Program-made: the position numbers and the translations under genes
Shown here: positions 1,598-50,304 of the stretch, piece after piece
Layout: every line of letters starts with the position of its first letter
Position numbering within the stretch: the stretch's first letter is position 1
Assembly: GCA_963760795.1 (NCBI GenBank)
Contig: CAVXEP010000016.1
Coordinates: 1 to 64,000 of the forward strand
Origin: an uncultured delta proteobacterium
GTDB lineage: Bacteria; Desulfobacterota; Binatia; UBA9968
Length of the DNA: 64,000 bases
Direction: 5' to 3'
The notes under the pieces: model-generated
What the model saw: the letters and a program-made list of their open reading frames with translations, nothing else
The model's database searches: none
What the model was told of the DNA's origin: nothing

Positions 1598-1618
1598 TTC
1601 CCGCCTGCGCGGGAATGA
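608..1618 (+). CDS. IS30-family DDE transposase
   Basis: N-terminal HTH (IRQIAAAMDRAPSTIMRELKRN), WSPAQV, ISYESIY, PGHWEADL, TITFDNGTEF, PWQKGGIEN. Confidence 0.95.
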   Translation: MGQNYEQLSLEERCTLCRLSQAGKTIRQIAAAMDRAPSTIMRELKRNTGSQVGYQPAYADKQAKSRRWKGSRLLRDPDLQAQVLTGLRQGWSPAQVAGRLKQEYRRQVISYESIYRFIDSQIRRTKDYDWRHYLPRGKSKRGWRGRKGGSSVDRIQGRVSIDQRPAYIDKRRQPGHWEADLMLFAKYGQALLMTHERHSRLLCVSRQPSKAAEPVVKKLTELFGPLPPSMRRTITFDNGTEFAYHHRLHKLSMRTFFCDAHAPWQKGGIENAIGRMRRGLPRKTDLATLSDDRLLSVVRSYNHTPRKCLNFNTPAEVLTRDLLHFKCESTFPPARE

Positions 1619-1620
1619 CA
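1598..1620 (-). repeat. Right part of REP split by IS30 (left part 552-560)
   Basis: Removing the IS and one TTC restores cctggattcccgcctgcgcgggaatgaca, the inverted partner of REP 218-245. Confidence 0.85.
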
Positions 1621-18887: not shown

Positions 18888-19969
18888 CTTAATGGGTTAC
18901 ATTCGTTCAAGCCGTTCAAGTCATTTAAATTTGAATGCTTGTTTATTCTGGCCAATTGCGATTGCAGCGTTGACCGTGTTTTCGTTCGCCTTCAGCCTTT
19001 GCCCAGCCGTTGCAGAAGTCGGTGGCCATGATCGGCGCCCGCAGTGGGGCGTCTTGGCCGCTGTGGATCGCCAAGGAAGCGCGGCTTTACGCCAAGTATG
19101 GACTCGATGTCGAGTTGGTCTATGCGGTCCACCCGGCGCCCATCGCGGCGGTGATTACCGGCCATGCGGCGATGACTTCGTCGGGCGGCGATCCGGCGCT
19201 GCTCGCCGCGGCCAAGGATCCGTCGTTGGTGGTGCTCGGCGGCTTCATGAACAAAGCGTCCTTCGCCATGATCGGCTCGAAAAGCGCCACCGACATGAAG
19301 CACTTGTCCGGCAAAAAGATCGGCGTCGGCAGGGTCGGCGATCCGCCCTATCACATGGCGGTCAGTCTGCTCAGGAAATTTCATCTGACGGCGCGCGATG
19401 TCCAGTGGGTGTCCATCGGCGTCGACGCCGCGGCTAGAGCGGCGGCGCTGCAAAGCGGTCTGGTCGACGCGGCGTTGATCACCGCGCCGGCTTACTTTCG
19501 CTTGCAAGCGGCAGGCTTGCCGGTGCTTGCCGTGCTGCTCGATCACGACGATATTTATGTGTCGACCTATTATTTGTTTCGCCGCGATGCGCTGGGCAAG
19601 GAACGCCCCGCGGCCTTGGCTTATATCAAGGCGCATGCGGAAGCGATCAAACGATTTTACGACGACAAAGCCTTCGCCGCTGACGTGATGATCAAGTACG
19701 GCGGCACGCGCGACCGCGAGGATGCCAATCGGGTTTACGATCTATATCGCAAAGCGCGCGTGCTCGAGGCGGTGCCCTACGCGCTCAAAGGTTCCATCGA
19801 CGCGGTGATCGAGCGCCAGGGGCAGGATCTCAAGGGCAGCGACCTGAGCAAGATGATCGATAACAGCCTGGTCGACCAGTTGGTTAAAGAGAAATATTTC
19901 GAGACTGTCTTCGGGCCGTCCATTCGTGATGAACAGCAGCGCCGCCAGGCGCAGGCCTTCGGCCGTTAG
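18880..19969 (+). CDS. NMT1/SsuA-type solute-binding protein (+1 frameshift near 18993)
   Basis: Signal peptide in the upstream frame; WPLWIAKEARLYAKYGL, LSGKKIGVGR, MIDNSLVDQL. Confidence 0.82.
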
Positions 19970-23034: not shown

Positions 23035-24036
23035 TTATTTTGTCGCGTTGACCTGGCGCAGAATACGATCGTCGAAGAATTGCGCCGGCTTGGCGGTCTT
23101 GGCCTCGGGGATGGATTCGGAGAGGAAATCCAAAACGCCTTGCAGCCCTGCTTCAGAAGTGACCAGCTCGCGGCGAAAGCCAGCCTTTTTAAAAAACTCG
23201 TAGCTGCGGTCGAGAACGTCTGGATCGGTTTCGTAGGCGTATTTGCCGATGACCTTCATCGAGAAGGGCTTATCGGCGTAGAAGCGCATGATGCCGCTGC
23301 GTACGGCGCGGAGCAACGGCACGAGCCTGGCACTGAGCTCATCGATGCGGCTCTTTCGCACCACCAAGCCGACGTTTTGATAGGGCTCGCCGATCAAGCT
23401 GACCAAGGAATGAAAGCCGTCGCGCTCGATTCTAAAGCTTGCCGGCGGCGAGCCGACGCCGCCGGCGATCTGTCCGGCGTAAAAAGCCGCGACGATTTGC
23501 GGACTGCTGCCGAGCGGGCGAAGCTGCACGTCTTTCGCCGTGAGACCCATTTTTTTCAATGCCACCATCGTCCCATAGGCGACCGGTGTTCCCGGCCGGT
23601 CGGTACCGACAATTTTACCTTTCAACTGCTCGACGGTTTTGATTTCCGGACGGGCATAGAAATCCCAGATCATCGTGTTCAAAAGACCGGCGATGAAAGT
23701 CACGTCGATGCCGCGCAGTGCGGCGGTGAGGACGGGAGCCGCCGAGACTTGGACGACATCGATCTCGTTGGCGAGCAATGCCGGAATCGCGCTGGTCGAT
23801 TGCATGGAGAGCACTTCGATGTCCAAGCCTTCCTTGGTAAACGCTCCCGAGTCTTTGGCCATCCACACCGACGCCATGGTCGACGAGGTGCTCAGATATG
23901 CTACCCGCAGCGGCCGAGCCTGACGTGAGGACTGCGCCCAGCCAGTAATCGGCATGACGATACTCGCGAATATTCCGGCAATGACCACACCGGTCAGTAT
24001 TTGCTCGATCGTAGCGTTGTTCTTTGCAAAGCCCAT
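23035..24036 (-). CDS. NMT1/SsuA-type solute-binding protein
   Basis: VWMAKDSGAFTKEGL, QLKGKIVG, KPAQFFDDRIL. Confidence 0.87.
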   Translation of the reverse strand: MGFAKNNATIEQILTGVVIAGIFASIVMPITGWAQSSRQARPLRVAYLSTSSTMASVWMAKDSGAFTKEGLDIEVLSMQSTSAIPALLANEIDVVQVSAAPVLTAALRGIDVTFIAGLLNTMIWDFYARPEIKTVEQLKGKIVGTDRPGTPVAYGTMVALKKMGLTAKDVQLRPLGSSPQIVAAFYAGQIAGGVGSPPASFRIERDGFHSLVSLIGEPYQNVGLVVRKSRIDELSARLVPLLRAVRSGIMRFYADKPFSMKVIGKYAYETDPDVLDRSYEFFKKAGFRRELVTSEAGLQGVLDFLSESIPEAKTAKPAQFFDDRILRQVNATK

Positions 24037-24406
24037 GGGATTGGCCTCCAAGTGTGGCAGCAATTTGATTGAGCGTAAGATAGGGCAGGACGAAGGGTAG
24101 CGTCAAGGTAAAATAGCGAGCTTCTCGAACATGAGCGCACTGACCCCACGGTCCTAGAATAGCGCAGCCATTTCCTACAACCTGTGGATGGTCGTCCGGC
24201 GGTTAAAATTGTTCCGTGCACATTATTGGCCGCCTGTGGGTGCAAAAGCTCAGGAAAATTACCAAAATTTACGCTTATGCTTCAAGCTCACTCACGGCCC
24301 AAGGGTTGCGCTAAGTCAGAGTGAATGCGCGAGCAAATTATCCCGTAAACTTTTTGTCGCTGCTCGCGTCTATCTAGAGTGTTCAGATCGGAAAGGATGG
24401 TGGCCC

Positions 24407-24596: not shown

Positions 24597-25590
24597 CTAG
24601 AAGCGGCCCTCTTTCTCCAGTTTCTTCAGGACGCTGTCGTCGATCAATTCTTCCGCCTTCAACTTGCGAATCTTTTCATTGGTCAAGCCGAGCAGACGGA
24701 TGACGTTGCGAATGCCGTCGACGCTCGGATAGATTTTCTGGTCGTACAGAGTCGGCAAAGTTTTGTAGCCTTCCTCGGCATCTTCCAGTTTCGCCAAGCG
24801 CATCCCCTTGGCGACGGCGCGAATGACCTCGGTTTTGTTGGCCGGGTTGCGGACAAAGTTGACCGCGTCGAGCAGGCCGCGAAAGACATTTTCCGCCACC
24901 GCCGGCTGCGTGCGCATGAAGTTGCGCCGCGACATTAGTCCCGAGCCCTGATAGGGGATCGGCAGCTTTTCCACGTCGGCGAGCACCGTGTAGCCTTTGT
25001 TCTGCAAGTTCTTCCCATGGGCGTAGCCGACCAGCACGGCGTCGACGGTGCCGGCCATGAAACCTTGAACCATGACGGTCTGATCGCCGAGGGAGCGGAA
25101 CTGGATCTTGTCGCGCTCCGGCGACAGGCCCCAGTGGTCCAGCGTCAGCATGGAAAAAATCCAACCGCCGCCGCTAAGACTGTTGACCCCGACGCTCTTG
25201 CCTCTTAATTCCGCCGGGCTTTTGATCTTTGGCTGGGCCATGAACATGCCGGTGAGCCGATTGATAAAACCGGCGACGAAAACCAAGTCGGCGCCCTTCG
25301 GCGATGGCGCCAAGATTGGCGCCGGATACCGAGCCCCAGTGAAACTGCGATTCGCCGGAACTCAGCGCCGCCATGCCGATGGGCCCGCTGCGCGCTTGAA
25401 TGAACTGGACTTCGATGCCGTATTTGCGAAAGTAGCCCTGCTCTTGGGCGACATAGATCGCCGCTTCGCGCTCGCTTACCGAACCGGTGGTGAGGAGGAC
25501 TTTGGTCAGCGGGGTAGCTGCATGCAGGATATTTGCCGGCGCTGCAACAATAAACAAGATAATGAGCAATCCAAGAGAACGAACCATCAT
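24597..25590 (-). CDS. NMT1/SsuA-type solute-binding protein (+1 frameshift near 25295)
   Basis: Signal peptide and YVAQEQGYFRKYGI in one frame; ELRGKSVGV...LIDDSVLKKLEKEG in the next. Confidence 0.85.
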
Positions 25591-25627
25591 CAAAATAAGT
25601 CTCCGTTCATGGCAGTAAATCTCGTTT

Positions 25628-25743: not shown

Positions 25744-26304
25744 CTACAGCGTCGGCTGCACCGCTGGACGATCTAACAGCCGTTTCACCCACGCTTTTAC
25801 ATTCGGCAGATCATCACCGATGGTCGCTTGATAGCGGTCGAGCCGGGTGAAAAACGGGATGAAGGTGATATCGGCAAGCGAGTAGTCGCCGGCGATATAG
25901 TCGCGCCCGCGCATGTGGCCTTCGAGATACTTCAAGTATTCAACGATCTCGGCCTTGGACTGTTCGACTTTGTAGTCATGGGCGACGAAGCCGCCGGCGC
26001 GCTGCAAGCGGGTGTTGCAGTAGTCGACCCAGATGCGCACGCGGGCGCGCTCGCCGAGGTCGCTGGGCATCAATCGAACCGCCGGATATTTCTCTTCGAG
26101 ATATTCATCGATGATCGCCGACTCGTAGATCACCAAGCCGTCGTCGTCGAGCACCGGCACTTTGCCGTAGGGATTGCGCTCGAGCAAATCCTTGGATTTA
26201 TTTTTGAGATCGCACTCGATGGTTTCGTAGGAGAGATTCTTTTCCGCCAGGACGATCCTCGTCCTGTGGGCATAGGGTCAGGGACGGTAGGTAAATAACT
26301 TCAT
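25744..26304 (-). CDS. Selenocysteine-containing glutathione S-transferase (Sec9, U-P-Y-A)
   Basis: RBS ggagg then MKLFTYRP-UGA-PYAHRTRIVLAEK...NPYGKVP...YESAII...SLADI in one frame. UGA (26280-26278) sits at the CPYA cysteine position. Confidence 0.85.
26248..26266 (-). promoter_or_regulatory. Bacterial SECIS-like hairpin (GST)
   Basis: CAGGACGA-GGA-UCGUCCUG starting 11 nt after the UGA. Confidence 0.75.
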
Positions 26305-30760: not shown

Positions 30761-31576
30761 TTACTTAGCTGCGCGCGTCGCGGTTAGCTTGGCTCCGCCG
30801 CCGTTGATTTCCATGCTATTGCCTTGAACATGTCCGGTGTATTGGACGCCGGCGCCGCTGAAGCTGATTTCTTCACCGTTCAGCTTGCCGTTGATCGGCG
30901 TGCTGACATTGCCGCTCTTGATGGTGCCGGTAATCATTTGAAATGTTTGTTTGAGGGCTATCTCGCCCGCGGCGGTTTTCCAGGTGCCCTGGACTTTGGC
31001 GGGGACGATCCACAGGTGAGCGGTGCACCAGTTGGTGCAGCCTTCGACCCGTTCGGTCTGATCCGGCTTCCAATCTTCCATGTCGAAAGAGTTCGACACG
31101 ATACGTGTGCCGGGTTTCAGATCGAGGATTTTCGGACGCAGCTTCAAATTGATGCTCGGCAGCAAGAACATGGTGATGACTTGTGCTTGGGAAAAGTCGC
31201 TCTCGAATAAATCGGCTTTGGTGAAGGTGGCTTTGTCGCTAACTCCTTCTTTCGCTGCGGCATTCTTTGAGATCTCAACCATGTCTGGGTTGTATTCGAT
31301 GCCAAGGGCTTTGGAGCCCTTCTTCGCCGCTGTGATAACGGTGCGGCCGTCGCCGGAGCCGAGATCGATGACGTAGTCTTTGGGCGTGACCTTGGCCATT
31401 TCCAACATCTTGTCGACCAGCGCCTGTGGCGTTGGCACCCAAACGACATCCTTGCCGGCCTGGCCGACCTCCGGCTGAAACTCCTTCGCCGGTTGGGCGA
31501 AGCTGATGTTGCCGGCGACATTGATGACCAGCGCGGCGCTGACAAACACACTAGCGGTTAATTTCTTCAGATCCAT
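30761..31576 (-). CDS. Class I SAM-dependent methyltransferase with signal peptide
   Basis: DVVWVPTP, IDLGSGDGR, GIEYNP, LKPGTRIVSN.FDM.DW.PD. Confidence 0.88.
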   Translation of the reverse strand: MDLKKLTASVFVSAALVINVAGNISFAQPAKEFQPEVGQAGKDVVWVPTPQALVDKMLEMAKVTPKDYVIDLGSGDGRTVITAAKKGSKALGIEYNPDMVEISKNAAAKEGVSDKATFTKADLFESDFSQAQVITMFLLPSINLKLRPKILDLKPGTRIVSNSFDMEDWKPDQTERVEGCTNWCTAHLWIVPAKVQGTWKTAAGEIALKQTFQMITGTIKSGNVSTPINGKLNGEEISFSGAGVQYTGHVQGNSMEINGGGAKLTATRAAK

Positions 31577-31809: not shown

Positions 31810-32613
31810 CTAGCGCCGCGTCGCCGTCCACTTGGCGCCGTTTTTCGCCATGCCATCGATGGTGTTGCCAGTGACCTTGCCGCTGTATTCGGTCGTGCCG
31901 GCGGTGAAAGAAATCTGCTCGCCGTGCAATTTCCCGTTCACCGGGGTTTCAACGCCGCCAGACTTGAGCGTGCCGGTAATGTTCTGAAAGGTCTGTTTCA
32001 GGGCCAACTCGCCTTGGCCTAATGTCCAGGTTCCCGCCACTTTTGCCGGCACGATCCACAGATGCGCGGTACACCAGGAGTTGCAGCCCGGTAAACTGGC
32101 GGTTTCATCTGGTTTCCAATCACCCATGTCGAAGGTGTTCGAGGCGATGCGCGTGCCCGGTTTGAGATCGAGGATCTTCGGCCGTAGCTTCAGGTTGATG
32201 CTGGAGAGCAGGAACATGGTGATCACCTGGGCCTGGGAAAAGTCGCTCTCGAAAAGATCGGCTTTAACGAAACTCGCTTTATCGCTCACGCCTTCCTTGG
32301 CCGCCGCCTTTTTCGATAGCTCCACCATGTCGGGGTTGTATTCGATGCCCAGAGCCTTGGAACCGCGCTTGGCTGCTGTGATGACGGTGCGGCCGTCGCC
32401 GGAACCGAGATCGATGACGTAATCCTTGGGCGTGACCTTGGCCATGTCGAGCATCTTGTCGACCAGACCTTGCGGCGTCGGCACCCAAATGACGTCTTTG
32501 CCGTCTTGGCCGACCTGGGGCTGAAACTCTTCCGCGGCGCGCGCGGACTGTGCCGCGCTGAAAACTAGACAAAGTATTAAAGCTAACAATCGTATTGAAG
32601 TATTCGCTGGCAT
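31810..32613 (-). CDS. Class I SAM-dependent methyltransferase with signal peptide (tandem paralog)
   Basis: Near-identical core to 30761-31576; RBS gaggag; A-X-A cleavage site. Confidence 0.88.
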   Translation of the reverse strand: MPANTSIRLLALILCLVFSAAQSARAAEEFQPQVGQDGKDVIWVPTPQGLVDKMLDMAKVTPKDYVIDLGSGDGRTVITAAKRGSKALGIEYNPDMVELSKKAAAKEGVSDKASFVKADLFESDFSQAQVITMFLLSSINLKLRPKILDLKPGTRIASNTFDMGDWKPDETASLPGCNSWCTAHLWIVPAKVAGTWTLGQGELALKQTFQNITGTLKSGGVETPVNGKLHGEQISFTAGTTEYSGKVTGNTIDGMAKNGAKWTATRR

Positions 32614-32753
32614 GGCCTCTCCTCGTGAAGTATCTCGCTTTGCTACGGTCCACCTCAATACTCTAAGCAAACAAAAATGTCCAGGAAACCTCCGACCCGG
32701 TCCGACGATTTGAACGGCTTGAACGTTTTGAACGACTGGAACGGCCCAGGGTT

Positions 32754-34040
32754 CTAAGATTCTAATTGTCGGATCGCCGGGATGCGCCACGCGACCAGGG
32801 CGGTGAGGACGATGACGATGGCGCCCATGATCGCGACCGTTGTTGGCGCGCCGAGGAAGTGCGCCGATGTGCCGGCGAATAGCGCGCCCAGCGGCATGAA
32901 GCCGCGGTCGAGCATGTAGAGACTCAACACCCGGCCGCGCAGTTCATCGGGGACGATCATTTGCAGCATGGTGGCGGTGCTGGCGAGGAAAAACATCTGA
33001 AATATACCGACGATTACCAACGTCACCAAAGCCAGCGGAAACCAAGTGATCTGCGAGAACAGGATGATCGCGGCGCCGAGGACGAAAATGCTGCCGACCA
33101 AAAAGCGCCCCTGCCTCTTGATGCGGTTGCCCATCGAGGCCAAGGTCAAAATTGCTATTACGGCGCCGATACCGGGGGCGGCCATCAGCAAGCCCAATCC
33201 TTCCGGACCGATCTTGAGCACGTCCTTTTGAAACACCGGCATGAGCGTCTGGTAGGGCACGGCGAATATCCGCGGCACGTAAGCGAGCGCCATGAGGGCG
33301 AACACCGCCGGCGTCGACCAGACGTAAGCGAAACCCTCTTTGAGATTGGCCAGAGCTGAAGTGTGTCTGGCTTCGGCCCGCTGGGGCGGGACATTCATTC
33401 TATAAATCATCCACAGCACGCCGGCGTAGGCCACAGCTTGGACGAAAAAATTCTCGGCCGCGCCAACCCAGGCGATCAGCGCTCCGCCCAACGCCGGGCC
33501 TAGCACTTTCATCATATTGAAGCCGCCGGAGTTGATCGCCACGGCGTTGGCCAGCTCGTCTTTGGGCACCGAGCTGGGAATCAAACTCATGCGCACCGGC
33601 TCGGTGATGGTCCAAGCGATGCCGGTGATCAGTGTGAAAACAAAAATATGCCAGACATGCAGGTAAGGCGACCAGACCAAGCCGCCGAAGATGACGGCGG
33701 TGGCGATCAGCACCCATTGAGTGCCGATCAAGAGTTTTCTCCGGTCCATGCGATCGGCGGCAACCCCCGCCATCGGTCCGGTGACTAAAAACGGCAGCGC
33801 GCGCAGACCGTTGAGAGCGCCGAGAAGCACCGAATTGCCGGTGAGATCGTAGATCAGCCAGCCCAATGTGACTTGCTGCACCCATTGGCCGGCGCTCATC
33901 ATCACCGTGCCAGTCCAGAGATAACGAAAGTCGGCGTGGCGCAGCGACGAAAAGGTGCGCAAGCGAGCGCGTGCTGGAGTTGCTGTGGTTGCGGTGTCGA
34001 GCGGCGCTGTTAGTTCATCGTCCAAGTGTCTAGTTTCCAA
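32754..34040 (-). CDS. MFS transporter (MFS_3/EntS-like)
   Basis: FSSLRHADFRYLW, GVAADRMDRRKL, VPDELRGRV, about 12 hydrophobic segments. Confidence 0.9.
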   Translation of the reverse strand: METRHLDDELTAPLDTATTATPARARLRTFSSLRHADFRYLWTGTVMMSAGQWVQQVTLGWLIYDLTGNSVLLGALNGLRALPFLVTGPMAGVAADRMDRRKLLIGTQWVLIATAVIFGGLVWSPYLHVWHIFVFTLITGIAWTITEPVRMSLIPSSVPKDELANAVAINSGGFNMMKVLGPALGGALIAWVGAAENFFVQAVAYAGVLWMIYRMNVPPQRAEARHTSALANLKEGFAYVWSTPAVFALMALAYVPRIFAVPYQTLMPVFQKDVLKIGPEGLGLLMAAPGIGAVIAILTLASMGNRIKRQGRFLVGSIFVLGAAIILFSQITWFPLALVTLVIVGIFQMFFLASTATMLQMIVPDELRGRVLSLYMLDRGFMPLGALFAGTSAHFLGAPTTVAIMGAIVIVLTALVAWRIPAIRQLES

Positions 34041-35681: not shown

Positions 35682-35808
35682 CGTCATTCTCGCGTACGCG
35701 GGAATTCAGGTGACGGACAGTGTCCGTCATACCGTTGAAAAACGGTATCTAGGTTGAGGGGATGGACCCCGGTCGTCACCGGGGTGACGATAGAACGGGA
35801 ATGACGGA
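35682..35808. repeat. Cluster of CGTC REP palindromes
   Basis: cgtcattctcgcgtacgcgggaattcag; cgtcataccgttgaaaaacggtatctag; ggaccccggtcgtcaccggggtgacg; gggaatgacgg. Confidence 0.8.
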
Positions 35809-35835
35809 TAGGCGGGTGACTTTCAGTGAAACTGA

Positions 35836-36825
35836 ATGAGGTACGTCATGTTGCGTAGAACTAAAGCAGTTCAACTAATCTATCTGCTACCAGCGCTTTG
35901 GATTTTGCTTAGCTCTGTCCAAGCGCCGGCCCAGACTCACGTCAAGATCGGCATCGTCAGTCCGACCTTCGGGCATGCGCCATTTTACGTCGCGCGGGAG
36001 AAGGGATTCTTTAGGGCTGAAGGCTTGGTCGGTGAAGTGATCGTCATGAATCGGGATGACCTGATCTTGCAATCGTTAGTTGCCGACTCGATCCAGTTCG
36101 GCAATATTTCTCCCGGCGCATTTTTCCCGGCAAGGGATCAGGGTCTCACGGATCTCAAGATTATCGCCGGTTCGTTTAACGGCACGACCTATTCGATCAT
36201 TGCCAATGCGAAATTTAAAAGCCTAGAGCAGCTCAAGGGAGCGAAGCTGGCGGTCTCCAGCTTGCAGGCCGGTTCGACGCAAGTTTTGAAATACATCCTT
36301 AAACAGCGTGGTCTGGTTTATCCGCGTGATTATAACTTGATCCGCGCCGGTGGCACGACGCTGCGATGGGCGGCGTTGCAAACGCAGCAAGTTGACGGCG
36401 CGATTTTAGCGGAACCCGTAAGTGTCATCGCGGTGGAGAAGGGTTTCGTCAATTTGGGCGACGCCTATAAGTTGGTACCGGGATATATGCTAGCTGGCGT
36501 ATTCGTCCGCGAAGGGTGGGCGGCGAAGAACAAGGATCTGACACTGCGTTTTCTGCGCGCGTTTCACAACGCGTTAAAGTGGTTACACGACAACCGCGCT
36601 GAGGCGCTCGATCTCTTGCCGAAGATCACCACTCTGCAAAAGCAGTATGTGCAGAGCGCTTGGGAGACTTATACCAAAGCCGTTTGGCCGCGCGACGGAC
36701 GGGCGAGCGCCAAAGGCCTGCAGCTAGTGATCGACATGGTGGTTGAAGAGGGATTGCTCAAGAAGCCGGTGAAGCCCGAGGACGTGATCGATCATTCCTA
36801 CTTGCAGGAGATTGGCGCGCGCTAA
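35836..36825 (+). CDS. NMT1/SsuA-type solute-binding protein
   Basis: PFYVAREKGFFRAEGL, QLKGAKLAV, DVIDHSYL. Confidence 0.88.
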   Translation: MRYVMLRRTKAVQLIYLLPALWILLSSVQAPAQTHVKIGIVSPTFGHAPFYVAREKGFFRAEGLVGEVIVMNRDDLILQSLVADSIQFGNISPGAFFPARDQGLTDLKIIAGSFNGTTYSIIANAKFKSLEQLKGAKLAVSSLQAGSTQVLKYILKQRGLVYPRDYNLIRAGGTTLRWAALQTQQVDGAILAEPVSVIAVEKGFVNLGDAYKLVPGYMLAGVFVREGWAAKNKDLTLRFLRAFHNALKWLHDNRAEALDLLPKITTLQKQYVQSAWETYTKAVWPRDGRASAKGLQLVIDMVVEEGLLKKPVKPEDVIDHSYLQEIGAR

Positions 36826-37087
36826 TTATTTGTTCAAGTCGTTCCAATCGTTCAAGCGGTTCCAATCGTTCGGTCGATTTTGACTGTTGTGGCACGTTTG
36901 TATTAAGAGTGGATATGAAAACACGGAGGTGACCATGGAATTGGCGAGGCATCCGGCGCAGAAAATGTGTGGCCGCGTTAGGGTTCAAGGTTCAAAAGTT
37001 CAACGGTTCAAGGTCAGAAATTCAGCTTGGTTTATTCGTGAAAAACATTGTTTACTCCTTTCACCGTCTTGGAGGCTGTGACGCAAC

Positions 37088-37259: not shown

Positions 37260-38343
37260 ATGGGAATCATAGACGCCGATACGCATATCGATGAAACCGA
37301 GGACACTTGGGAGTTCATGACGGGCGACGATCTCAGGTTCAAACCGACGACACAGTACCCCGCCAATCCCGATCCGACCAAAGTTCCCGACCCGTTATTG
37401 GCTGATCGATGGGCGGCGCCAGCTGCGTTTTATCCGCGGCGACGAAGAATCGGGGACGGTGGTGGAATCGCGGGAACTGCTGGATGTCCAAGTCCGGCTC
37501 AAACATATGGACCAGCTCGGCACCGATATTCAAGTCATCTACCCGACGGTTTTTCTCATGGAGGCGACCGAGAAGCCCGAAGTCGCCAGCGCGCTGCGCC
37601 GTAGCTACAACCGCTGGCTTGCCGATCGCTGTGGGCGATCGGCTGGCCGGTTGCGCTGGGTGTGCCTGCCGCCGCTGCATAATATGGACGAGACCGTCAA
37701 AGAGCTGCGCTTCGCCAAAGAGCATGGCGCGTGCGGCGTCTTGAAGAAGGGCGATCGCGAGGCCGACAAATGGATCACCGATCCGTACTTTCTGCCGCTT
37801 TACGCAGAGGCGGAAAAGCTCGACCTGCCGATCTGCATTCATACCGGTTCGGGTATCCCGGATTTTTCGCCGGCGCGGGATTTTTCTCTAGCGCAGTTCT
37901 GGCGCACTAAAGCCGCGGCGGTCAACGGTATCGAGACCTTGATCGTCAACAACATTCCGGCGCAGTTTCCCAAGCTGCGTTTCGGCTGCATCGAAGCGGG
38001 CGCTTCGTGGGTCAACTTTGTCGATTATGACCTGCGCCGGCGGATGAAGTCGCGCACTGGGCGGGTGAGCGTCCTGGGCGGTCCGCCGACGATAATCAAG
38101 AGCAATGTCTACCAAGAAAACCGCATCTACGTCACCTGTCAGGTCGATGAAGATTTGCCGTACATCCTGCAATATGTCGGCGAGGACAATCTGATCGTCG
38201 GCTCCGACTACACGCACCGCGATCCGTCGATGGAGTTGGAGTTTCGTACACTATTGCAGCAACGAGCCGACCGGGGCGAGATTCCAAAGACGGCGGTGGA
38301 GAAGATCCTCTATGATAATCCCAAAGCGTTCTACGGGTTATAG
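37260..38343 (+). CDS. Amidohydrolase_2 family protein (+1 frameshift near 37382)
   Basis: MGIIDADTHIDE, VIYPT, CIEAGASW, GSDYTH.D, ILYDNPKAFY. Confidence 0.87.
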
Positions 38344-38454
38344 ATGATTTGACGGCGCCGCCGGGGAACGGGTGGCTAGCTTGCCGCTCTTTAAAAACCC
38401 GCCGATCCGTATTAAGCAATGAAGAAACTAATCCAATCGTAAGGAGAAGCCACC

Positions 38455-39543
38455 GTGCGCATAATTGACGCTGACACACATATCGACGAAACCGATGCCA
38501 CTTGGGAGTTCATGACGAGCGGCGATCTGGCCTACAAGCCGACGACCGCTTATCCATCCAACCCCGATCCGAAACTGCCGCCGGCGCGCTATTGGGTGAT
38601 CGAGGGCAAGCGGCAAGTGCGCTTCATCCGCAGTGACAAGGATTCCGGTACCACCGTTGAGACCCGCGAACTGCTCGACGTCAACGCCCGGCTCAAACAT
38701 ATGGATGAGCTCGGCACCGATATTCAGGTGATTTATCCGACCTTGTTTCTAATGGAAGCGTCGGAGAATCCCGAGGCGAGCACGGCGACGCGGAAAAGCT
38801 ACAATCGCTGGTTGGGCGAGCGTTGCAGTCATTCGGGCGGCCGCCTGCGCTGGGCATGCATGCCGCCGGTGCAGAAAATCGATTCGGTGCTGGAGGAGCT
38901 GACCTGGGCGAAAGAGCATGGCGCCTGCGGCGTCGTGAAAAAAGGCGACCGCGAAGCTGGGAAATATCCCGCCGATCCCTATTTCGAACCGCTTTATGCG
39001 GCGGCGGAAAAACTCGATCTGCCGATCTGCATTCATACCGGCTCCGGCATTCCAGATTTTTCGCCGGCGCGGGAGTTCTCCCATGGCCAGTTTATGCGCA
39101 CCAAAGGGGCGGCGATCAACGGTGTGCTCGGATTGGTCTTGCACAAGATCCCGATGAAGTTCCCCAAGCTGCGCATCGGCTGTATCGAGGCCGGATCCAT
39201 GTGGACGCCGTTCGTGGCTTACGATTTGAAACGGCAGGCGATCAAGCAGCAGGGGCGCGAGTCGGTGGGTGTTCTCGGCGTGCCGCTGATCGATATTTCA
39301 ACCAATGTCTTCAAGGACAACCGGATCTGGGTCACCTGCCAGGTGGACGAGGACTTGCCGCTAATCCTCAAAACCGTCGGCGAGGATAATCTCATGGTCG
39401 GTTCGGACTATACCCACCGTGATCCGTCGATGGAGCTGGAATTTCGCAAAGAGTTGCAAGCCCGCGCCGACAAGGGCGACATCCCGCAGGCGGCGATTCA
39501 GAAAATTCTCTACGACAATCCGAAGGCGTTCTATGCGCTATAG
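38455..39543 (+). CDS. Amidohydrolase_2 family protein (tandem paralog)
   Basis: IIDADTHIDE, GSDYTHRDP; closely similar to the upstream gene. Confidence 0.9.
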   Translation: MRIIDADTHIDETDATWEFMTSGDLAYKPTTAYPSNPDPKLPPARYWVIEGKRQVRFIRSDKDSGTTVETRELLDVNARLKHMDELGTDIQVIYPTLFLMEASENPEASTATRKSYNRWLGERCSHSGGRLRWACMPPVQKIDSVLEELTWAKEHGACGVVKKGDREAGKYPADPYFEPLYAAAEKLDLPICIHTGSGIPDFSPAREFSHGQFMRTKGAAINGVLGLVLHKIPMKFPKLRIGCIEAGSMWTPFVAYDLKRQAIKQQGRESVGVLGVPLIDISTNVFKDNRIWVTCQVDEDLPLILKTVGEDNLMVGSDYTHRDPSMELEFRKELQARADKGDIPQAAIQKILYDNPKAFYAL

Positions 39544-39571
39544 TCTTAAATTAGTATCTATGAAGCACACT

Positions 39572-39651
39572 CCGTCATGCCGGCGAAAGCCGGCATCCAT
39601 CTTCGCTTCTCCGACAATAACCCTGGATTCCGGCCTGCGCCGGAATGACGA
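39572..39651. repeat. Inverted CGTC REP pair
   Basis: ccgtcatgccggcgaaagccggcatcca ... ctggattccggcctgcgccggaatgacg. Confidence 0.85.
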
Positions 39652-39744
39652 AATGAATAAGAGAGCGTATAGCGTATTAAGTTGTGACACAGTGAGGTGC
39701 GGTTGATGTTAACTATGGCAAATTTAACAGGAGGAGGACATTAA

Positions 39745-40296
39745 ATGATTGTTCTCAGCCCGGAAGGGAAAGCGCAGACCTCGGCGGCGAAAATCGCGGG
39801 TATCGCCCAGTTCACCGATCTGCGCGGCAAAGTAGTGGGGCTGCTCGATAACAGCAAACCCAACGCCGACAAGCTGGCGGAGCGTTTCGCGGAATTGTTG
39901 AAAGAAAGATACGGCGTCGCCGGCCTGATCACGCGGCGTAAGCTGACCGCCCAGCAAGGAGCGCCCAAACAGTATCTCGACGAGCTCGCGTCGCAAGCCG
40001 ACTTCGTCATTTGCGGCCTCGGTGATTGAGGCTCCTGCACGTCGTGGAGTGTCCACGACTCACTCGAGATCCAAAAGCGCGGACGGTTCGCGATCACACT
40101 GATCACCCACGCCTTCATCGCATTGGCAAAGTCCGAAAAGGAAGCTTTCGGCGCGCCGGATCATCCGGTGCTGGTCGTGCGGCATCCCATCGGCACGGTC
40201 AAGATCGAAGATGTGAATGAAAAGGCCGACGCGGCGTTCGATCAGTTGGTAAATATTCTGCTTGCGCCCGAGGCGGCGCGAGCGAAGGTCGCCTAG
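39745..40296 (+). CDS. UGSC-family selenoprotein (Sec95, U-G-S-C)
   Basis: RBS ggaggagg. VGLLDNSKPNAD...ICGLGD-UGA-GSCTSWSVHDSLEIQKRG...VRHPIG; the frame stays open 88 codons past UGA 40027-40029 to TAG at 40294-40296. Confidence 0.9.
40041..40059 (+). promoter_or_regulatory. Bacterial SECIS-like hairpin (UGSC)
   Basis: GUCGUGGA-GUG-UCCACGAC starting 11 nt after the UGA. Confidence 0.75.
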
Positions 40297-40387
40297 CAAA
40301 GATAGTTTCAAGTTTCGGGTTTCGAGTTTCGTGTTGAACCACGGACTCGGAATCCGAGACTTTTTGTTTTGTATCTGTTCCTAAGTT

Positions 40388-40472
40388 CGTCATACCGGCG
40401 AAAGCCGGTATCCATCTTGGTCTTCGGTTCGCCGGCAACAAACCTGGATTCCCGCTTTCGCGGGAATGACGA
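40388..40472. repeat. Inverted CGTC REP pair
   Basis: cgtcataccggcgaaagccggtatcca ... ctggattcccgctttcgcgggaatgacg. Confidence 0.85.
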
Positions 40473-40510
40473 ATAGAAATTTCGAGTCTATTCTTGAAGG
40501 GTGGAATTCT

Positions 40511-41563
40511 ATGGCAACGGCAGCATTAGCAGCGGAACGAGTCGAAATACCGGATGACCTCTGGGAGGCGCAAGCCTTCTTCGAAGAACAGGGCTGGTCC
40601 GATGGCCTGCCGATCATCCCGCCCACGGAAGCGCGGGTCGCGCAAATGCTGGCGGCGACCAAGCGCAAAGCGGATGAAGTGATCGGCGCGGTGCCGCCAC
40701 GCTGGGCGCAAGCGACGGTGGAAAAAATCGCTATCAACGGGGTCATGGCCGGCTGCAAGCCTGAGTATATGCCGACGCTGATCGCCGCGGTGGAAGCGAT
40801 CACCGATCCCAAGTTGAATCTCTACGCCCTGCAAGCCACCACCGGCGGGCCGGCGGTGATGATCATCATCAACGGGCCGGTGCGCCAACAACTGAACGTC
40901 AACGGCGGTTCCAACGCCCTTGGCGAAGGCTGGCGCGCCAACGCCACCATCGGCCGCTTCGTGCAATTAGTGAAGCGCAATATCGGCGGCTCGTATCCGG
41001 GCTCCACTTGCAAAGCCACGCTAGGGTGGCCGGGAAAATATTCCATCTGCGTCGGCGAAAACGAGGAAGCGAGTCCCTGGGAGCCGCTCCATGTCGAGCG
41101 CGGTTTCAAAGCCGATGAGAGCACGGTGACGGCGATCAGCGCGGATGCGTCGATCCGCGCGTCGGACCTGGACAGCTCGAAAGCGGAAGGCGTGCTGATC
41201 AATTTCGCGCAAAAAATGGAAGGCCCTTCCGGGCCTGAGGCGATCATGGTCGTCTGCCCGGAGCATGCCAAGATCATCGCCGACGACGGCTTCAGTAAGA
41301 AGGACGTGCAGAAGTTCATTTGGGAGCGCGCCGCGTACCGGATGAAAGATTTGCCCGACGAAACCTTCTTCCAGCGGGTCAAGCGGCGATCCGATCTTAA
41401 ACTGACTCGCGACAGCATCATTCCGGTCACCGACAAGCCCGAAGATATTCTCGTCATCGTCGCCGGCGGCGATGGCTCGCAGTCGCAGTATATTCACGTC
41501 TGGGGGCAGAGCACGCCGGAAGGCGGTTCGACGCGGTCGGTGACTAAAGTTATAAAAGATTAA
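40511..41563 (+). CDS. Conserved uncharacterised protein typically partnering UGSC proteins
   Basis: GWSDGLPIIPPT..RV..ML, ATVEKIAINGVMAGC.PEY, RANATIGR, GENEEASPW, VAGG. Confidence 0.75.
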   Translation: MATAALAAERVEIPDDLWEAQAFFEEQGWSDGLPIIPPTEARVAQMLAATKRKADEVIGAVPPRWAQATVEKIAINGVMAGCKPEYMPTLIAAVEAITDPKLNLYALQATTGGPAVMIIINGPVRQQLNVNGGSNALGEGWRANATIGRFVQLVKRNIGGSYPGSTCKATLGWPGKYSICVGENEEASPWEPLHVERGFKADESTVTAISADASIRASDLDSSKAEGVLINFAQKMEGPSGPEAIMVVCPEHAKIIADDGFSKKDVQKFIWERAAYRMKDLPDETFFQRVKRRSDLKLTRDSIIPVTDKPEDILVIVAGGDGSQSQYIHVWGQSTPEGGSTRSVTKVIKD

Positions 41564-41565
41564 GG

Positions 41566-41610
41566 GTTCCAATCGTTCAAAACGTTCCAGTCGTTCCAAT
41601 CGTGTCGGAA
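41566..41610 (+). repeat. (GTTCMANNC)x4-GT(GT)CGGAA dispersed element
   Basis: gttccaatc gttcaaaac gttccagtc gttccaatc gtgtcggaa, identical to 46461-46505. Confidence 0.85.
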
Positions 41611-41681
41611 AATCCTCGACCGATAAGCCTCTTACCCTCGCCCATTCCGATGGGAGAGGGGAGGGTGAGGGTCTGATACCC

Positions 41682-42671
41682 ATGTTCATTCGCCTAATCA
41701 CTCTCTTCGCCGTTCTTTTACTTATTCTTTCTTTGACAGTTACGCCCACCTTCGCCGCCGACAAGCTGCGCATCGGTTACTCCGGCGCTACGATCACCAA
41801 CTCGATGTTGTGGGTGACTCACGAAGGCCGGCTGTTCGAAAAGAACGGCATCGACGCCGAAGTTCTCTACTTGCAGACCACTTTGGGGCAGACCGCGTTG
41901 ATCGCCGGCGAGATTCAGATGTGTGTCTACTCGGCCAGCTTGCTCACGCCGGCGCGTTTGCAGGGCGCCGATGTGGTCATGCTGCTGAGCTTTCTGCATA
42001 AGCCGATTTATCGTCTGGTGGTCAAGCCGGAGATTCGCTCGGTTGCCGATCTCAGAGGCAAACGGGTAGGAGTTACGCGTTTCGGCACGGTGAGCGACTG
42101 GACGACGCGCTTGTTATTAGCGCGCCTCGGGCTCGACGCGGAAAAAGACGTGATCCTGGTGCAAAGCGGCGATGTGCCGGTACTGGTTAATTCGCTTGCC
42201 GTGGGAAAATCCATCGACGCCGCGATCATGCAGCCGCCTTATGACAAAAAACTCGCGGCGATGGGTATGCGTGTTCTCTTGAACATGCAGGAGATGGACA
42301 TCGTCTTGCAGCAGACCGGCCTCAACACCACGCAAAAGTTCATCGCGCGAAATCCAGACATCGTTAGGCGGGTAGTGAAATCGATGATCGACGGCATCCA
42401 TTTCATGCGCAACAACCCCGCCGTCGCCAAACGCGCCATCGGCAAACACATGCAGATCAAAGACGAGCGCGACCTGGAAGATTCGTATCAACTCCTACGC
42501 AGTTTCATCCAACCCAAGCCCTATCCGAATCTCGAAGGCTTCAAACCGATCTTCGAGGAAGCCGGCAAACGTTTGCCCGCGGCCAAGACCGCCAACGCGA
42601 AGGATTTCGTCGACACGCGGTTTATCGAGGAGCTAGATAAGTCAGGGTATATCGACGGGCTGTATAAATAA
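41682..42671 (+). CDS. NMT1/SsuA-type solute-binding protein
   Basis: Signal peptide, ADLRGKRVGVTRFG, DFVDTRFIEELDKSGYIDGLYK. Confidence 0.88.
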   Translation: MFIRLITLFAVLLLILSLTVTPTFAADKLRIGYSGATITNSMLWVTHEGRLFEKNGIDAEVLYLQTTLGQTALIAGEIQMCVYSASLLTPARLQGADVVMLLSFLHKPIYRLVVKPEIRSVADLRGKRVGVTRFGTVSDWTTRLLLARLGLDAEKDVILVQSGDVPVLVNSLAVGKSIDAAIMQPPYDKKLAAMGMRVLLNMQEMDIVLQQTGLNTTQKFIARNPDIVRRVVKSMIDGIHFMRNNPAVAKRAIGKHMQIKDERDLEDSYQLLRSFIQPKPYPNLEGFKPIFEEAGKRLPAAKTANAKDFVDTRFIEELDKSGYIDGLYK

Positions 42672-44692: not shown

Positions 44693-46396
44693 ATGGCGCA
44701 AGGAACAGTTCATGTCGACGAGAGCGGCGCGGTTCCGAAGATTGACATCTCGATTATCAACGAGAAATCGGTTGAGGTCTCGATCTTTCGCCTCGACCCA
44801 AATACTTTTGAAGAAGAACCGGTCGTGGAATTGGGATCCGGCGAGGAAGTAAACATTCCCGTGTGGGTGACGGACTGCCTGGTGGCAAGGATCGGCGCGG
44901 AACTGGTCGGCGAATTTGGCGTTTCCGAGGAGTTGCGTGAATGGCGCTTACCCAATGGGGAGCCCGAGAATGGCCACCACTGTCGGTTCCTTGTTGACAA
45001 TCATCGTGCAGAATCGGTGCGGCTTTTGTGTACGGCAGGCGAAGATGGAGAAACACTGCTGATTCAGGTTCTCGATCCGGGTGCTCAGACCGTCCTGGAT
45101 TCTTTTTCCGGGGACTATTGGGAGGCGATGATCGGCGACCAGGTCGTCTCGGCATATCAGCCGAGCGCGCGGCTGCCTGTATGGGAGATCGACAACCTAG
45201 TCTGTGACTTCGTGCCGGAGCTTGATCCCCTCCATAACGAAAATCTCAATGAGACGAGCGAGCCTCGGCTCATCGATCAACCTGCCATCGGCGAGGTCAG
45301 GGCAGTAATGGTGTTCGTTGATTTCTCCGACGTACCGGGCAAGAGATCGCCGGATGAGGCTCGCAAGTGTGTCGTAGGCGAATCGGCCGAATGGTTTCGC
45401 CGGGAATCTTACGGTCGGTTGCGTTTCTCGGTTGAGACTCCGCTCCTGGAGTGGCGCCGGATGCCGCGCGCCGCGACTGCTTACGACAAGATTCGCAGTG
45501 ATGGTGCCGAGCATGCGTCGTATATCACCACTGCGCTGCGACTATTTGCCGCTGACGAGATCGACTTTGCGCAGTATCAAATAGCGTATATCGTGGCAGC
45601 TGAAACTCCCGTGGATGCCCCTTATGTCGGAGTGTTGGACCTGTCTCCGACTTTGAGCGCGGGGATCCCGATCGCGACCAACAATGGCGCGGTGCACCAT
45701 GTAGTGACTTTTGGTCGCGACAGTTACCATCGGGGATTTCGCGTTCTCGTGCACGAAACTGGCCATCTATTTGGATTGCCGGATTTGTATCGGTTTCATC
45801 CCGACGCGAGCGGTGCGTGGCTGACGCCAACCGGCGCTTGGGACATCATGTGTGACCTGGATCATGGCTGGCATTTTCTCGGTTGGCATAAGTACAAGCT
45901 CGGTTGGCTCGACGAGTCGCAGCTGATTTATTTCAGCTCGGGTGAGCTTTCGGTACGGTTGACTGCTCTGGAGTCGGCTCAAGGCGTCAAAATGATCGTT
46001 CTCCCGAGCGAACACTCTTCGCAACTTTATATCGTCGAGATCGCCCAGCCTCTCGGTGATAACGAAACATTTCGCGACAAAGGTTTGTTGATCTACGCGG
46101 TGGACGCCTCAGTGGCCACCGGCCATGAACCGGTGAGTGTGCTGCGCTGTGGATCTCGCTCGGAAGATCTCACGGTGGGCATGCGCTGCAACGACTTCGT
46201 CGCGCCGGGGGAAAGCCATATCGTGCGCTTGCCCAACGGCGAGCGGGTTGAAGTGTTCAACCGAGAGCGGCATGGCGCCGACTTCGAAGTTACGGTGGTC
46301 AGCACGAGCGCTGGGGAACCTGGCGATAGGGAGCCGATACCATGCCGTATCTGTCAAGATGCCGCCGCTCATTCGATATGGGTGAGAGCAACTTAA
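44693..46396 (+). CDS. M6 (immune inhibitor A-like) metalloprotease with two N-terminal VHL-beta-like repeats
   Basis: FVDFSD, WF..ESYG.L, HETGHLFGLPDLY, WDIM, GWHKYKLGWL. Confidence 0.8.
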   Translation: MAQGTVHVDESGAVPKIDISIINEKSVEVSIFRLDPNTFEEEPVVELGSGEEVNIPVWVTDCLVARIGAELVGEFGVSEELREWRLPNGEPENGHHCRFLVDNHRAESVRLLCTAGEDGETLLIQVLDPGAQTVLDSFSGDYWEAMIGDQVVSAYQPSARLPVWEIDNLVCDFVPELDPLHNENLNETSEPRLIDQPAIGEVRAVMVFVDFSDVPGKRSPDEARKCVVGESAEWFRRESYGRLRFSVETPLLEWRRMPRAATAYDKIRSDGAEHASYITTALRLFAADEIDFAQYQIAYIVAAETPVDAPYVGVLDLSPTLSAGIPIATNNGAVHHVVTFGRDSYHRGFRVLVHETGHLFGLPDLYRFHPDASGAWLTPTGAWDIMCDLDHGWHFLGWHKYKLGWLDESQLIYFSSGELSVRLTALESAQGVKMIVLPSEHSSQLYIVEIAQPLGDNETFRDKGLLIYAVDASVATGHEPVSVLRCGSRSEDLTVGMRCNDFVAPGESHIVRLPNGERVEVFNRERHGADFEVTVVSTSAGEPGDREPIPCRICQDAAAHSIWVRAT

Positions 46397-48996: not shown

Positions 48997-49323
48997 GGCC
49001 GTCCTCCGAGAAACTGAATTGCCATTTTCCTATCACAGATCGGGTTAAACGAGGATTATTTTTCTAAGCGGCAAAGTTGCACCCAACCCTTGGACTTTCG
49101 TGGACTTCGGTCTTTGTGTTAAGAGTTTAAATCTAAACATTCCCCGCAGCTTGCTGCGGGCACCATCAAATGGGGAATCCAAAGGGGGCGAGCATCCCCT
49201 TTGGTCGCGTGCGGGGTTAATACCCCGTACGCGAAATGCCTTGTTTATTTGTTCAAGCGGTCCGAAGCGGTCATTGCGGTTCGGAAGAGCCGACTGGTTC
49301 GAATCAAATTGGGTACACCAATC

Positions 49324-50304
49324 ATGAAGCGAATAATTGAAGGTTTCTTAACGCTGTTACTATTGGCGCCACAGGCTGTTCCTGCCGCCGACAAGATCCG
49401 CATCGGCTATTCTGGACTAAGCCCGGCCACCGCGATGCTGTGGGTTGCGCAGGAAGGCAAGCTCTTGGAGAAAAACGGTCTCAATCCTGAGGTGCTGTTT
49501 TTGCGCAACAATCTCGGCCAGTCGGCGATGATCGCCGGCGAGATCGACATGGGCAGTTATTCGGCGAGCCTGATGGCGCCGGCGCGGGTGCAAGGGGCGG
49601 ATCTGGTGATGATTGTGAGCTTTCAACAGAAGCTCAACTACCGGCTGGTGGTTCGACCGGAGATTCGCACGCTGGCGGACTTGAAAGGCAAGGTGCTCGG
49701 GGTTACCCGTTACGGCACGGTGAACGATGCCACCATGCGTTTGCTGATCAATAAGCTCGGTCTCGATCCTGACCGCGATGTCAGGTTGATTCAAGTCGGC
49801 GATTCCGCGCCGGTGGTCGCGACTTCATTGATCGCCGGCAAGACTTTCGACGGCGCTTTGCTGCAGCCGCCTTATTATAACAAGGCGGTGGAGTCCGGCT
49901 TTCGCGTGTACGCCAACATGGAAGATATGGACATTCCATTTCAACAGGTGGGACTCAATACCACCCAGCGCTTGATCGCGAAGAGCCCAGACATGGTGCG
50001 CCGCGTGGTCAAATCGATCCTCGAAGGCGTGCAGTTAATCCGCACCAATCCCGCCGTGGCCAAGCGCGCCATCGCTCGCTACATGCAGATCAAGGATGAG
50101 AAAGTGCTGGAGGAGTCCTACCAGCAGTTGAAAGGAACTGCGGAAATCAAACCCTATCCCTCCGCGGAGGGTTTCAAGACGATCTTGGACGAGCTGGCGA
50201 AAAAACTCCCAGCCGCGCGCACGGCCAATCCTCGCGACTTCATGGATGCACGCTTCATTCAGGAATTCGACAAGTCCGGGTATATCGACGGGTTGTATAA
50301 ATAA
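49324..50304 (+). CDS. NMT1/SsuA-type solute-binding protein (paralog of 41682-42671)
   Basis: ADKIRIGYSG, ADLKGKVLGVTRYG, DKSGYIDGLYK. Confidence 0.88.
   Translation: MKRIIEGFLTLLLLAPQAVPAADKIRIGYSGLSPATAMLWVAQEGKLLEKNGLNPEVLFLRNNLGQSAMIAGEIDMGSYSASLMAPARVQGADLVMIVSFQQKLNYRLVVRPEIRTLADLKGKVLGVTRYGTVNDATMRLLINKLGLDPDRDVRLIQVGDSAPVVATSLIAGKTFDGALLQPPYYNKAVESGFRVYANMEDMDIPFQQVGLNTTQRLIAKSPDMVRRVVKSILEGVQLIRTNPAVAKRAIARYMQIKDEKVLEESYQQLKGTAEIKPYPSAEGFKTILDELAKKLPAARTANPRDFMDARFIQEFDKSGYIDGLYK

Follow-up and report, generated by a model that had tools for sequence, protein, structure and literature searches.

Few bacterial selenoprotein families are as abundant in environmental surveys as UGSC, yet it has no assigned function. 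The sections on it in the 2008 survey report give 255 sequences and the fifth rank among the selenoprotein families (PMC2398784), and the UGSC passages of two further papers describe selenocysteine (Sec) and cysteine (Cys) forms whose function is uncharacterised (PMC1976440, PMC13188914). For glycine reductase, PMC13188914 gives a thioredoxin-dependent electron supply and, for the subunit GrdB, a UxxCxxC motif. Here we analyse a UGSC gene and the gene that follows it, which encodes a partner of 350 amino acids (aa), in a stretch of 64,000 nucleotides (hereafter, the window; positions 1 to 64,000 of contig CAVXEP010000016.1, assembly GCA_963760795.1) from an uncultured delta proteobacterium of the class Binatia. 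The locus is an ordinary member of a known, uncharacterised family with a known partner. What we add, from sequence comparison and modelling, is a link between the C-terminal half of UGSC and GrdB, a predicted flavodoxin-like fold, a predicted UGSC-partner interface, and the finding that redoxin domains on the partner supplement UGSC. It may be that the two proteins form a two-subunit, thioredoxin-fed selenol reductase of remote GrdB kinship, in which Sec reacts with a substrate located between the subunits, a proposal that could turn out right or wrong with equal ease.

The protein obtained by reading through the in-frame TGA, 183 aa with the motif U95-G-S-C98, scores 149.8 bits against PF24696 (cut-off 25) and 131.4 bits against NF041046 (cut-off 125), and the Sec position is occupied by a Cys codon (TGC or TGT) in 48 homologous loci. 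As an earlier note on this DNA had described, a hairpin with an 8-bp stem and a 3-nt loop starts 11 nt after the UGA. It fits all limits of the bacterial Sec insertion sequence (SECIS) model given in PMC13188914, namely a loop of 3-9 nt (here 3 nt) starting with G and then G or U (GUG), a stem of 4-16 bp (8 bp), a distance of 16-37 nt from the UGA (19 nt) and an energy of at most -7.5 kcal/mol (-12.5 kcal/mol). Taken alone, its energy is unexceptional against dinucleotide shuffles (z = 0.0 to -1.0), and single-sequence hairpin energy was dropped as SECIS evidence as not significant. Among fetched homologues, in which related copies are not independent, the full stem is in register in 47/64 distinct TGA copies against 7/47 Cys copies. 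Where the peptide is the same, TGA copies use AGT as the Ser codon of the loop (40/40) and Cys copies AGC (32/32); synonymous recoding produces the full stem in 2.3% of 20,000 trials. These comparisons indicate that the hairpin is under codon-level selection. The genes selA, selB and selD (with profile scores above the cut-off) and tRNA-Sec (selC) were found in the genome. Because the read-through protein matches the family, the hairpin fits the SECIS model and appears to be selected at the codon level, and selA, selB, selC and selD are present, UGA 40027 is read as a Sec codon, so that membership of the UGSC family and the use of Sec, both claimed earlier, are borne out.

A hairpin of like geometry had also been noted in a GST gene. 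It was confirmed, and only 4 of the 1935 TGAs of the window share this stem and spacing, including those of UGSC and of the GST at 26280 (-). The GST-family gene (25747-26304, - strand) has the in-frame TGA as residue 9, with the same SECIS geometry and a GGA loop. In addition, several public protein records (P0002-P0008 and P0028-P0030; seen in six of them) give W in place of Sec; these were apparently predicted with TGA=Trp and are not natural variants.

The earlier note had likened the region around Sec to that of GrdB and PrdB. For GrdB this stands as a remote homology confined to the C-terminal half of UGSC, whereas for PrdB the direct scores are at control level (25-28 against PrdB-like profiles, unrelated control 28). 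With hhalign, UGSC was aligned to a profile of 16 GrdB sequences, GrdB-like proteins being drawn from genomes of the same class, with a probability of 89.9 and a score of 49.7 over 102 columns, Sec falling on Sec; the reversed control scored 14.4, and none of 15 shuffles exceeded 17.7. A second UGSC alignment, composed mostly of Cys-type sequences and largely distinct from the first, gave a probability of 94.9 and a score of 59.5. Against a background of 34,250 open reading frames (ORFs), a UGSC hidden Markov model (HMM) placed six GrdB proteins above all unrelated ORFs (best E 3.3e-6, 15/16 at E<1), and a GrdB C-terminal HMM ranked UGSC next after PrdB-like proteins, with 11/84 UGSC at E<0.01. 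These profile comparisons make it very probable that the C-terminal half of UGSC is remotely homologous to the C-terminal Sec region of GrdB. The full-length GrdB models are far from matched (12.2 bits against TIGR01917, cut-off 602.2; no match to PF07355); UGSC is not a GrdB, but by analogy it may work like one. Neither a link between UGSC and GrdB nor a function for the partner was found in the UGSC-related passages of the openly accessible literature.

This genome has five GrdB homologues with TGA, of which two have UxxS, two UxxC and one UxxG, together with about seven genes like GrdE and a single GrdA, the GrdB/GrdE/GrdA-type loci being C13:10175-12584, C20:123960-126580, C4:118580-123733, C4:155454-157977, C1:107010-109612, C7:96546-97725 and C13:157087-157515. 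Full-length GrdB homologues are common in this order, and a literature search for Binatota with glycine reductase gave no paper. A short PrdB-like gene with an in-frame TGA (U-P-F-C) is located at C12:93513-94310 (+), and similar short forms are widespread in the class.

UGSC matches were found in 85 of 121 genomes of the class, some of which hold 6-12, and a third Cys (UxxCxxC) is present in 65/114 distinct TGA-type copies. The model of the window protein (predicted local distance difference test, pLDDT, 90.9) has five alternating beta/alpha units with Sec at the start of helix 3, the N-terminal strand being poorly defined in the single-protein model. VIA-align (best Z 10.8, root-mean-square deviation (rmsd) 4.8, 136 aligned) returned generic alpha/beta folds with no standout; the 50 matches listed, a list that excludes no family, are flavodoxin-like or Rossmannoid and include receiver domains. 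No significant match to the UGSC alignment was found among PDB sequences. The predicted fold appears to be flavodoxin-like alpha/beta rather than the thioredoxin-like one guessed in the UGSC section of the 2008 paper (PMC2398784). Nine relatives (L087, L090, L091, L092, L102, L109, L110, L111 and L120) have a second, divergent UGSC (36-46% identical) 1-4 kb after the first pair, often with a partner of its own.

The 350-aa partner has no match in Pfam or NCBIfam, and belongs to a large family of 5,555 clusters at 50% identity. In Fig. S1A of Zhang and Gladyshev 2008, a domain named 'Unknown_1' is fused to UGSC, and the figure's alignment corresponds to the partner from its A-x-N-x-V-M-A-G-C region through N-G-P (PMC2398784). 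By this match the partner is 'Unknown_1', and the UGSC-partner pairing is already in print. Conserved residues are D31, C82, T110-T111, N144, R149, C180 and E183, with C82 in 132/136 (97%) and C180 in 126/136 (92%) homologue rows. The model of the partner is confident (pLDDT 95.9), no whole-fold match was found among solved structures (VIA best Z 6.2, rmsd 2.8, 75 aligned), and its alignment had no significant match among PDB sequences; the VIA match covers mainly residues 211-331 and little of the N-terminal half, and so does not establish a new fold. A sequence search of the ESM Atlas gave only unnamed clusters or automatic 'thioredoxin' names. Of two candidate relationships, that to a GrdE/PrdA-like proprotein (PF09338) was rejected, as it has no Pfam match in its favour and hhalign against five GrdE from this genome gave a probability of 0.6. 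For the other, Foldseek placed alpha subunits of class I (Fe-S) fumarate hydratase in its best rows (E = 0.005, template modelling (TM) score 0.21; VIA Z 3.7, rmsd 5.8, 187 aligned), and these weak structural rows have no profile support (probability 0.2, below shuffles).

The earlier note had treated UGSC and the partner as one unit, and linkage, fusions and a predicted interface all support this. The partner lies at most 1.5 kb from UGSC in 28/29 of the best-scoring loci of the class, and likewise in 48/48 Cys-type loci from other groups. The two other UGSC copies of this genome read in frame into a partner domain, each being frameshifted further on. Among 64 long partner homologues picked out of the best 150, 43 carry UGSC (39 N-terminal, 4 C-terminal), two an AhpC/TSA domain, one an FTR domain and 18 nothing. 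The interface for which that note had asked was found in the predicted complex of a natural Cys pair, L071, with a score of 0.87 against 0.00 for the best control; the mark applied to this score is reached by 116/157 solved and 2/215 mismatched pairs, counts that are only approximate with custom alignments. Runs of the L071 complex share at least 96% of contacts, with a partner pLDDT of at least 89. Its interface includes Cys94 (the Sec equivalent) and residues 95-96 and 98-100 of UGSC and, on the partner side, the equivalents of N76, M79, Y105-G112 and N157-G159. No solved complex of like kind was found by PDB sequence searches with either protein. UGSC and the partner are predicted, on the basis of this model, to bind each other.

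Several observations bear on how such a pair could be supplied with electrons. Thioredoxin reductase (TrxB)-like genes with a CxxC motif are present in seven loci of Binatia and Actinomycetota, including the C7 fusion of this genome, and fusions of the partner to AhpC/TSA, FTR and CxxC domains were seen. It could have been the case that thioredoxin-fold domains replace UGSC on the partner, and this was ruled out: redoxin-fused partners have a TGA-type UGSC, mostly UxxCxxC, directly downstream in 72/80 loci, and in 54/54 of those with at least 2.2 kb of downstream DNA, the eight loci in which it was not found having at most 106 bases downstream. By gene order, the thioredoxin-fold domains on the partner add to UGSC and do not replace it. 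The electron supply of UGSC may parallel that of glycine reductase. Moreover, a protein of 83-99 aa with a C-x-x-C-V motif and no Pfam match adjoins the partner in 11 actinobacterial loci (L036, L037, L038, L040, L041, L046, L047, L053, L055, L058 and L076) and is fused to the C-terminus of the partner in three proteins (P0215, P0223 and P0282); it is a candidate electron carrier.

We propose the following mechanism. UGSC would bind the partner to form a cytoplasmic two-subunit reductase, in which the N-terminal strands pair and the modelled interface contains the Sec-equivalent residue and, on the partner side, the conserved Q-A-T-T loop. GrdB is the substrate-attacking subunit of its enzyme, its Sec residue being the one that attacks; by analogy, the Sec of UGSC would attack a small substrate at the subunit interface, and the selenolate would cleave a carbon-heteroatom or heteroatom-heteroatom bond. 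Cys98, or the third Cys in the many homologues with UxxCxxC, could resolve the adduct to give a selenenyl-sulfide, which thioredoxin reductase together with a thioredoxin-fold or similar CxxC carrier would reduce again. Binding or activating the substrate would fall to the partner, which would have the role that GrdE has for GrdB but no relatedness to GrdE. The substrate is probably an intermediate in the catabolism of organic compounds that differs between subfamilies. A bolder version, to which we incline less and which we offer tentatively, is that UGSC and the partner represent a third branch of the glycine/proline reductase selenoenzyme lineage, a GrdB-type Sec domain with a partner that has no solved whole-fold match in place of the pyruvoyl proprotein, and that they are widespread selenol-dependent catabolic enzymes of reductive bond cleavage in bacteria of soil and water, whose paralogues have become adapted to different substrates.

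A number of results weigh against the reductase proposal. The homology to GrdB spans about half of UGSC (residues ~68-176) and leans on the motif: when four motif columns are masked, the score falls to 31.2, near the 28.1 of an unrelated solute-binding protein (SBP) control, and in the whole NCBIfam library GrdB (E = 0.06) is level with NAD kinase (0.071). No solved relative of GrdB or PrdB that could serve for a fold comparison was found by sequence search. In the window protein, U-G-S-C-T-S-W, Trp101 takes the place of the third Cys. The pair modelled is a homologous one, the L071 proteins being ~35% and ~42% identical to the UGSC and the partner of the window; its tightest contacts are those of the two N-terminal strands and not of the active site, and conservation at its interface does not exceed that of the remaining residues (0.49 vs 0.52 and 0.52 vs 0.53). 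Partner copy C2 of this genome and the partner of L117 have no adjacent UGSC. Finally, the conserved C82 and C180 would be needless in a pure binding subunit.

This last point leads to the alternative that fares best, although we think it unlikely: the partner would be the catalyst, acting through Cys82 and Cys180, and UGSC a dedicated electron shuttle or resolving subunit, that is, a selenium-based disulfide reductase. The conservation of both Cys (97% and 92% of 136 homologues), the location of most invariant polar residues on the partner, its repeated fusion to thiol-redox domains, and the existence of partner copies without adjacent UGSC and of tandem partner-partner proteins would all be expected from a catalytic partner. 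However, the redoxin domains sit beside UGSC and not in its place, the predicted fold of UGSC does not look thioredoxin-like, and its closest relative, GrdB, is a substrate-attacking subunit. The equivalents of C82 and C180 are not among the named residues of the L071 interface, unnamed residues being uncertain.

The genes around the pair were the basis of a further suggestion: a compound taken up through the SBP could be processed by the amidohydrolases, and the Sec protein could reduce the product. The set of five co-directional genes (two amidohydrolases, UGSC, partner and SBP, all on the + strand across 37260-42671) is present, with the correction that the first amidohydrolase is frameshifted. 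Its conservation was followed in loci from 40 of 50 matches outside this genome, longer contigs being favoured. In the same genus, 17/17 informative loci have the amidohydrolase orthologue immediately upstream of the pair (1/18 dropped for want of upstream DNA), 4/17 have the twin as well, and 12/18 have an SBP at least 65% identical downstream. In other genera of the family the orthologue appears in 1/19 loci (3/22 dropped), where it is not adjacent, and the SBP in 5/18 (4/22 dropped; one of the five a fragment). A quick partner tree of 103 rows puts the orthologue in one shallow clade and one outlier, with two changes. Both gene types lie within 5 kb of three of the four pair or partner loci of this genome against 15% of its random sites; the genome has ~140 amidohydrolase and ~407 NMT1-type SBP loci by custom HMMs, and 129 PF04909 matches with some candidates left unscored. 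No ATP-binding cassette permease was found within 14 kb of the SBP, one elsewhere in the genome being possible; the nearest PF00528 permease match on the contig is at 57.3 kb, beside a family 5 SBP. As an observation apart, the ~407 NMT1/SsuA-type SBP loci are in very large excess over the 98 permease-domain matches of all types, an excess that appears to consist of orphans; eight such loci are in the window (1615-2676, 6208-7161, 19010-19966, 23038-24063, 24600-25593, 35836-36825, 41682-42671 and 49201-50304).

A looser association with amidohydrolases does extend beyond the genus. Non-orthologous ones (at most 27% identical) are found within ~6 kb in 19/48 Cys-type loci, many of them close kin, as counted from gene models (a custom HMM, which overlooked a second subfamily, found 10/48), and in 6/29 loci of the class they are within 1.5 kb. 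They occur also in genomes with only 16-22 family matches per 8-12 Mb. In only 4/48 Cys-type loci are they within 1 kb and on the same strand, most being on the opposite strand. For the amidohydrolase of the window (38455-39543), the relatives in the PDB are varied and remote (best E 1e-13) and permit no substrate assignment. Other recurring neighbours are short-chain dehydrogenases/reductases (SDRs), class III coenzyme A (CoA) transferases, acyl-CoA dehydrogenases and ligases, and PrpD-like proteins, and in closer relatives of other genera acyl-CoA ligases, PrpD-like proteins or CoA transferases adjoin the pair instead. The catabolic neighbours recur and vary, and therefore the pair, as far as gene neighbourhoods tell, has a general preference for catabolic clusters and belongs to no fixed cassette. 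The SBP and amidohydrolases next to it here are largely a genus-level arrangement and not fixed parts of the system. Thus, of the conservation expected for the neighbourhood, the loose association with amidohydrolases remains and the five-gene set proves to be nearly genus-limited. Import by the SBP followed by hydrolysis and Sec-dependent reduction has in its favour the constancy within the genus, the co-occurrence of both gene types at three of four loci and the recurrence of distant amidohydrolases, but the orthologue in 1/19 loci beyond the genus, the missing permease, the 15% chance co-occurrence and the other genes that adjoin the pair in relatives do not support such a pathway, which we regard as quite improbable. 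Least likely of all is that the pair handles sulfur, selenium or metal (persulfide or selenide transfer, cluster assembly or detoxification) with Cys or Sec as ligands, a reading that would suit the small CxxC domains adjacent in 11 loci or fused to the partner, which lack a Pfam match and which by eye we take to be NifU-like, as well as the fumarate hydratase rows in Foldseek, but that is opposed by the poor quality of that match (TM and profile probability, above) and by neighbours that are mostly genes of organic catabolism and not sulfur or cluster genes.

Table. Features of the UGSC locus in the window
Feature	Position	Strand	Remarks
Second NMT1/SsuA-type SBP, co-directional, upstream	35836..36825	+	Outside the coordinates of the earlier note
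Amidohydrolase, tandem paralogue (~70% identical to the next gene)	37260..38343	+	Frameshifted near 37384 in the assembly
Amidohydrolase_2 (PF04909)	38455..39543	+	Orthologue directly upstream of the pair genus-wide, rare outside
UGSC-family selenoprotein, 183 aa, U95-G-S-C98	39745..40296	+	PF24696, NF041046
In-frame TGA, Sec codon	40027..40029	+	Cys codon (TGC/TGT) at this site in 48 homologous loci
Bacterial SECIS hairpin with an 8-bp stem; GUG loop at 19 nt from the UGA	40041..40059	+	Consensus model and comparative tests
Partner, 350 aa ('Unknown_1')	40511..41563	+	No Pfam or NCBIfam match; predicted UGSC binder
NMT1/SsuA-type SBP, hydrophobic signal-like N-terminus	41682..42671	+	One of ~407 in the genome

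Near 37384 the first amidohydrolase passes from one reading frame into another. This frameshift is probably an assembly error, because the base in question is absent from the contigs of three of four DNA runs, the fourth having no cover there, and the ORF is intact in a 99%-identical relative (L116). A scan of the locus for promoters and terminators remained at chance level. RNA runs gave near-identical contigs over UGSC (one of them across the UGA) and over the partner; contigs of this kind cannot show transcription or co-transcription. UGSC and the partner have on their flanks intergenic palindromic repeats resembling repetitive extragenic palindromes (REP-like) as well as short, degenerate repeats in tandem (39573-39657, 40388-40478 and 35682-35811, also 36825-36869 and 41550-41603), and they are multi-copy, because metagenome depth is far higher over them. 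Elsewhere in the window, 44693-46396 (+) encodes a 567-aa protein without a Pfam match and with an H-E-x-x-H-x-x-G-x-x-D motif, presumably metalloprotease-like, and 30761-31576 and 31810-32790 (-) are a tandem pair of near-duplicate genes with a methyltransferase fold, of which the first has a signal-like N-terminus.

A predicted heterodimer with Sec at its interface, the link to GrdB and a candidate donor chain make the function of UGSC open to direct experiment. Moreover, Cys-only versions are found in cultured actinomycetes (Embleya, Yinghuangia, Conexibacter and Nonomuraea), with which Sec expression is not needed.

In comparison with known systems, the window protein is like the UGSC family (NF041046/PF24696) in its scores above the cut-offs, its U-G-S-C motif and its Sec/Cys exchange, and no difference was found at the family level. 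From the UGSC/Unknown_1 fusion it differs in that the window has two separate genes, and for that fusion the UGSC-related passages of PMC2398784 contain no interface, fold or GrdB link. With PrdB and the short PrdB-like selenoproteins, to which it is related through GrdB, UGSC has in common a small size and a U-x-x-C after a hydrophobic strand, whereas no UGSC-partner gene was found near the 30 PF07355 loci examined. With GrdB (TIGR01917, PF07355) and GrdE, UGSC and its partner share, on the side of UGSC, a remotely homologous stretch of ~85-100 residues that surrounds U-x-x-C and includes E-x-x-G-x-P and H-P elements further downstream, as well as the use of a second subunit, thioredoxin-type donors nearby and, in many UGSC, the UxxCxxC motif, which the window protein does not have. 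UGSC, on the other hand, has 94 residues before Sec where GrdB has ~346, and its partner is not GrdE-like.

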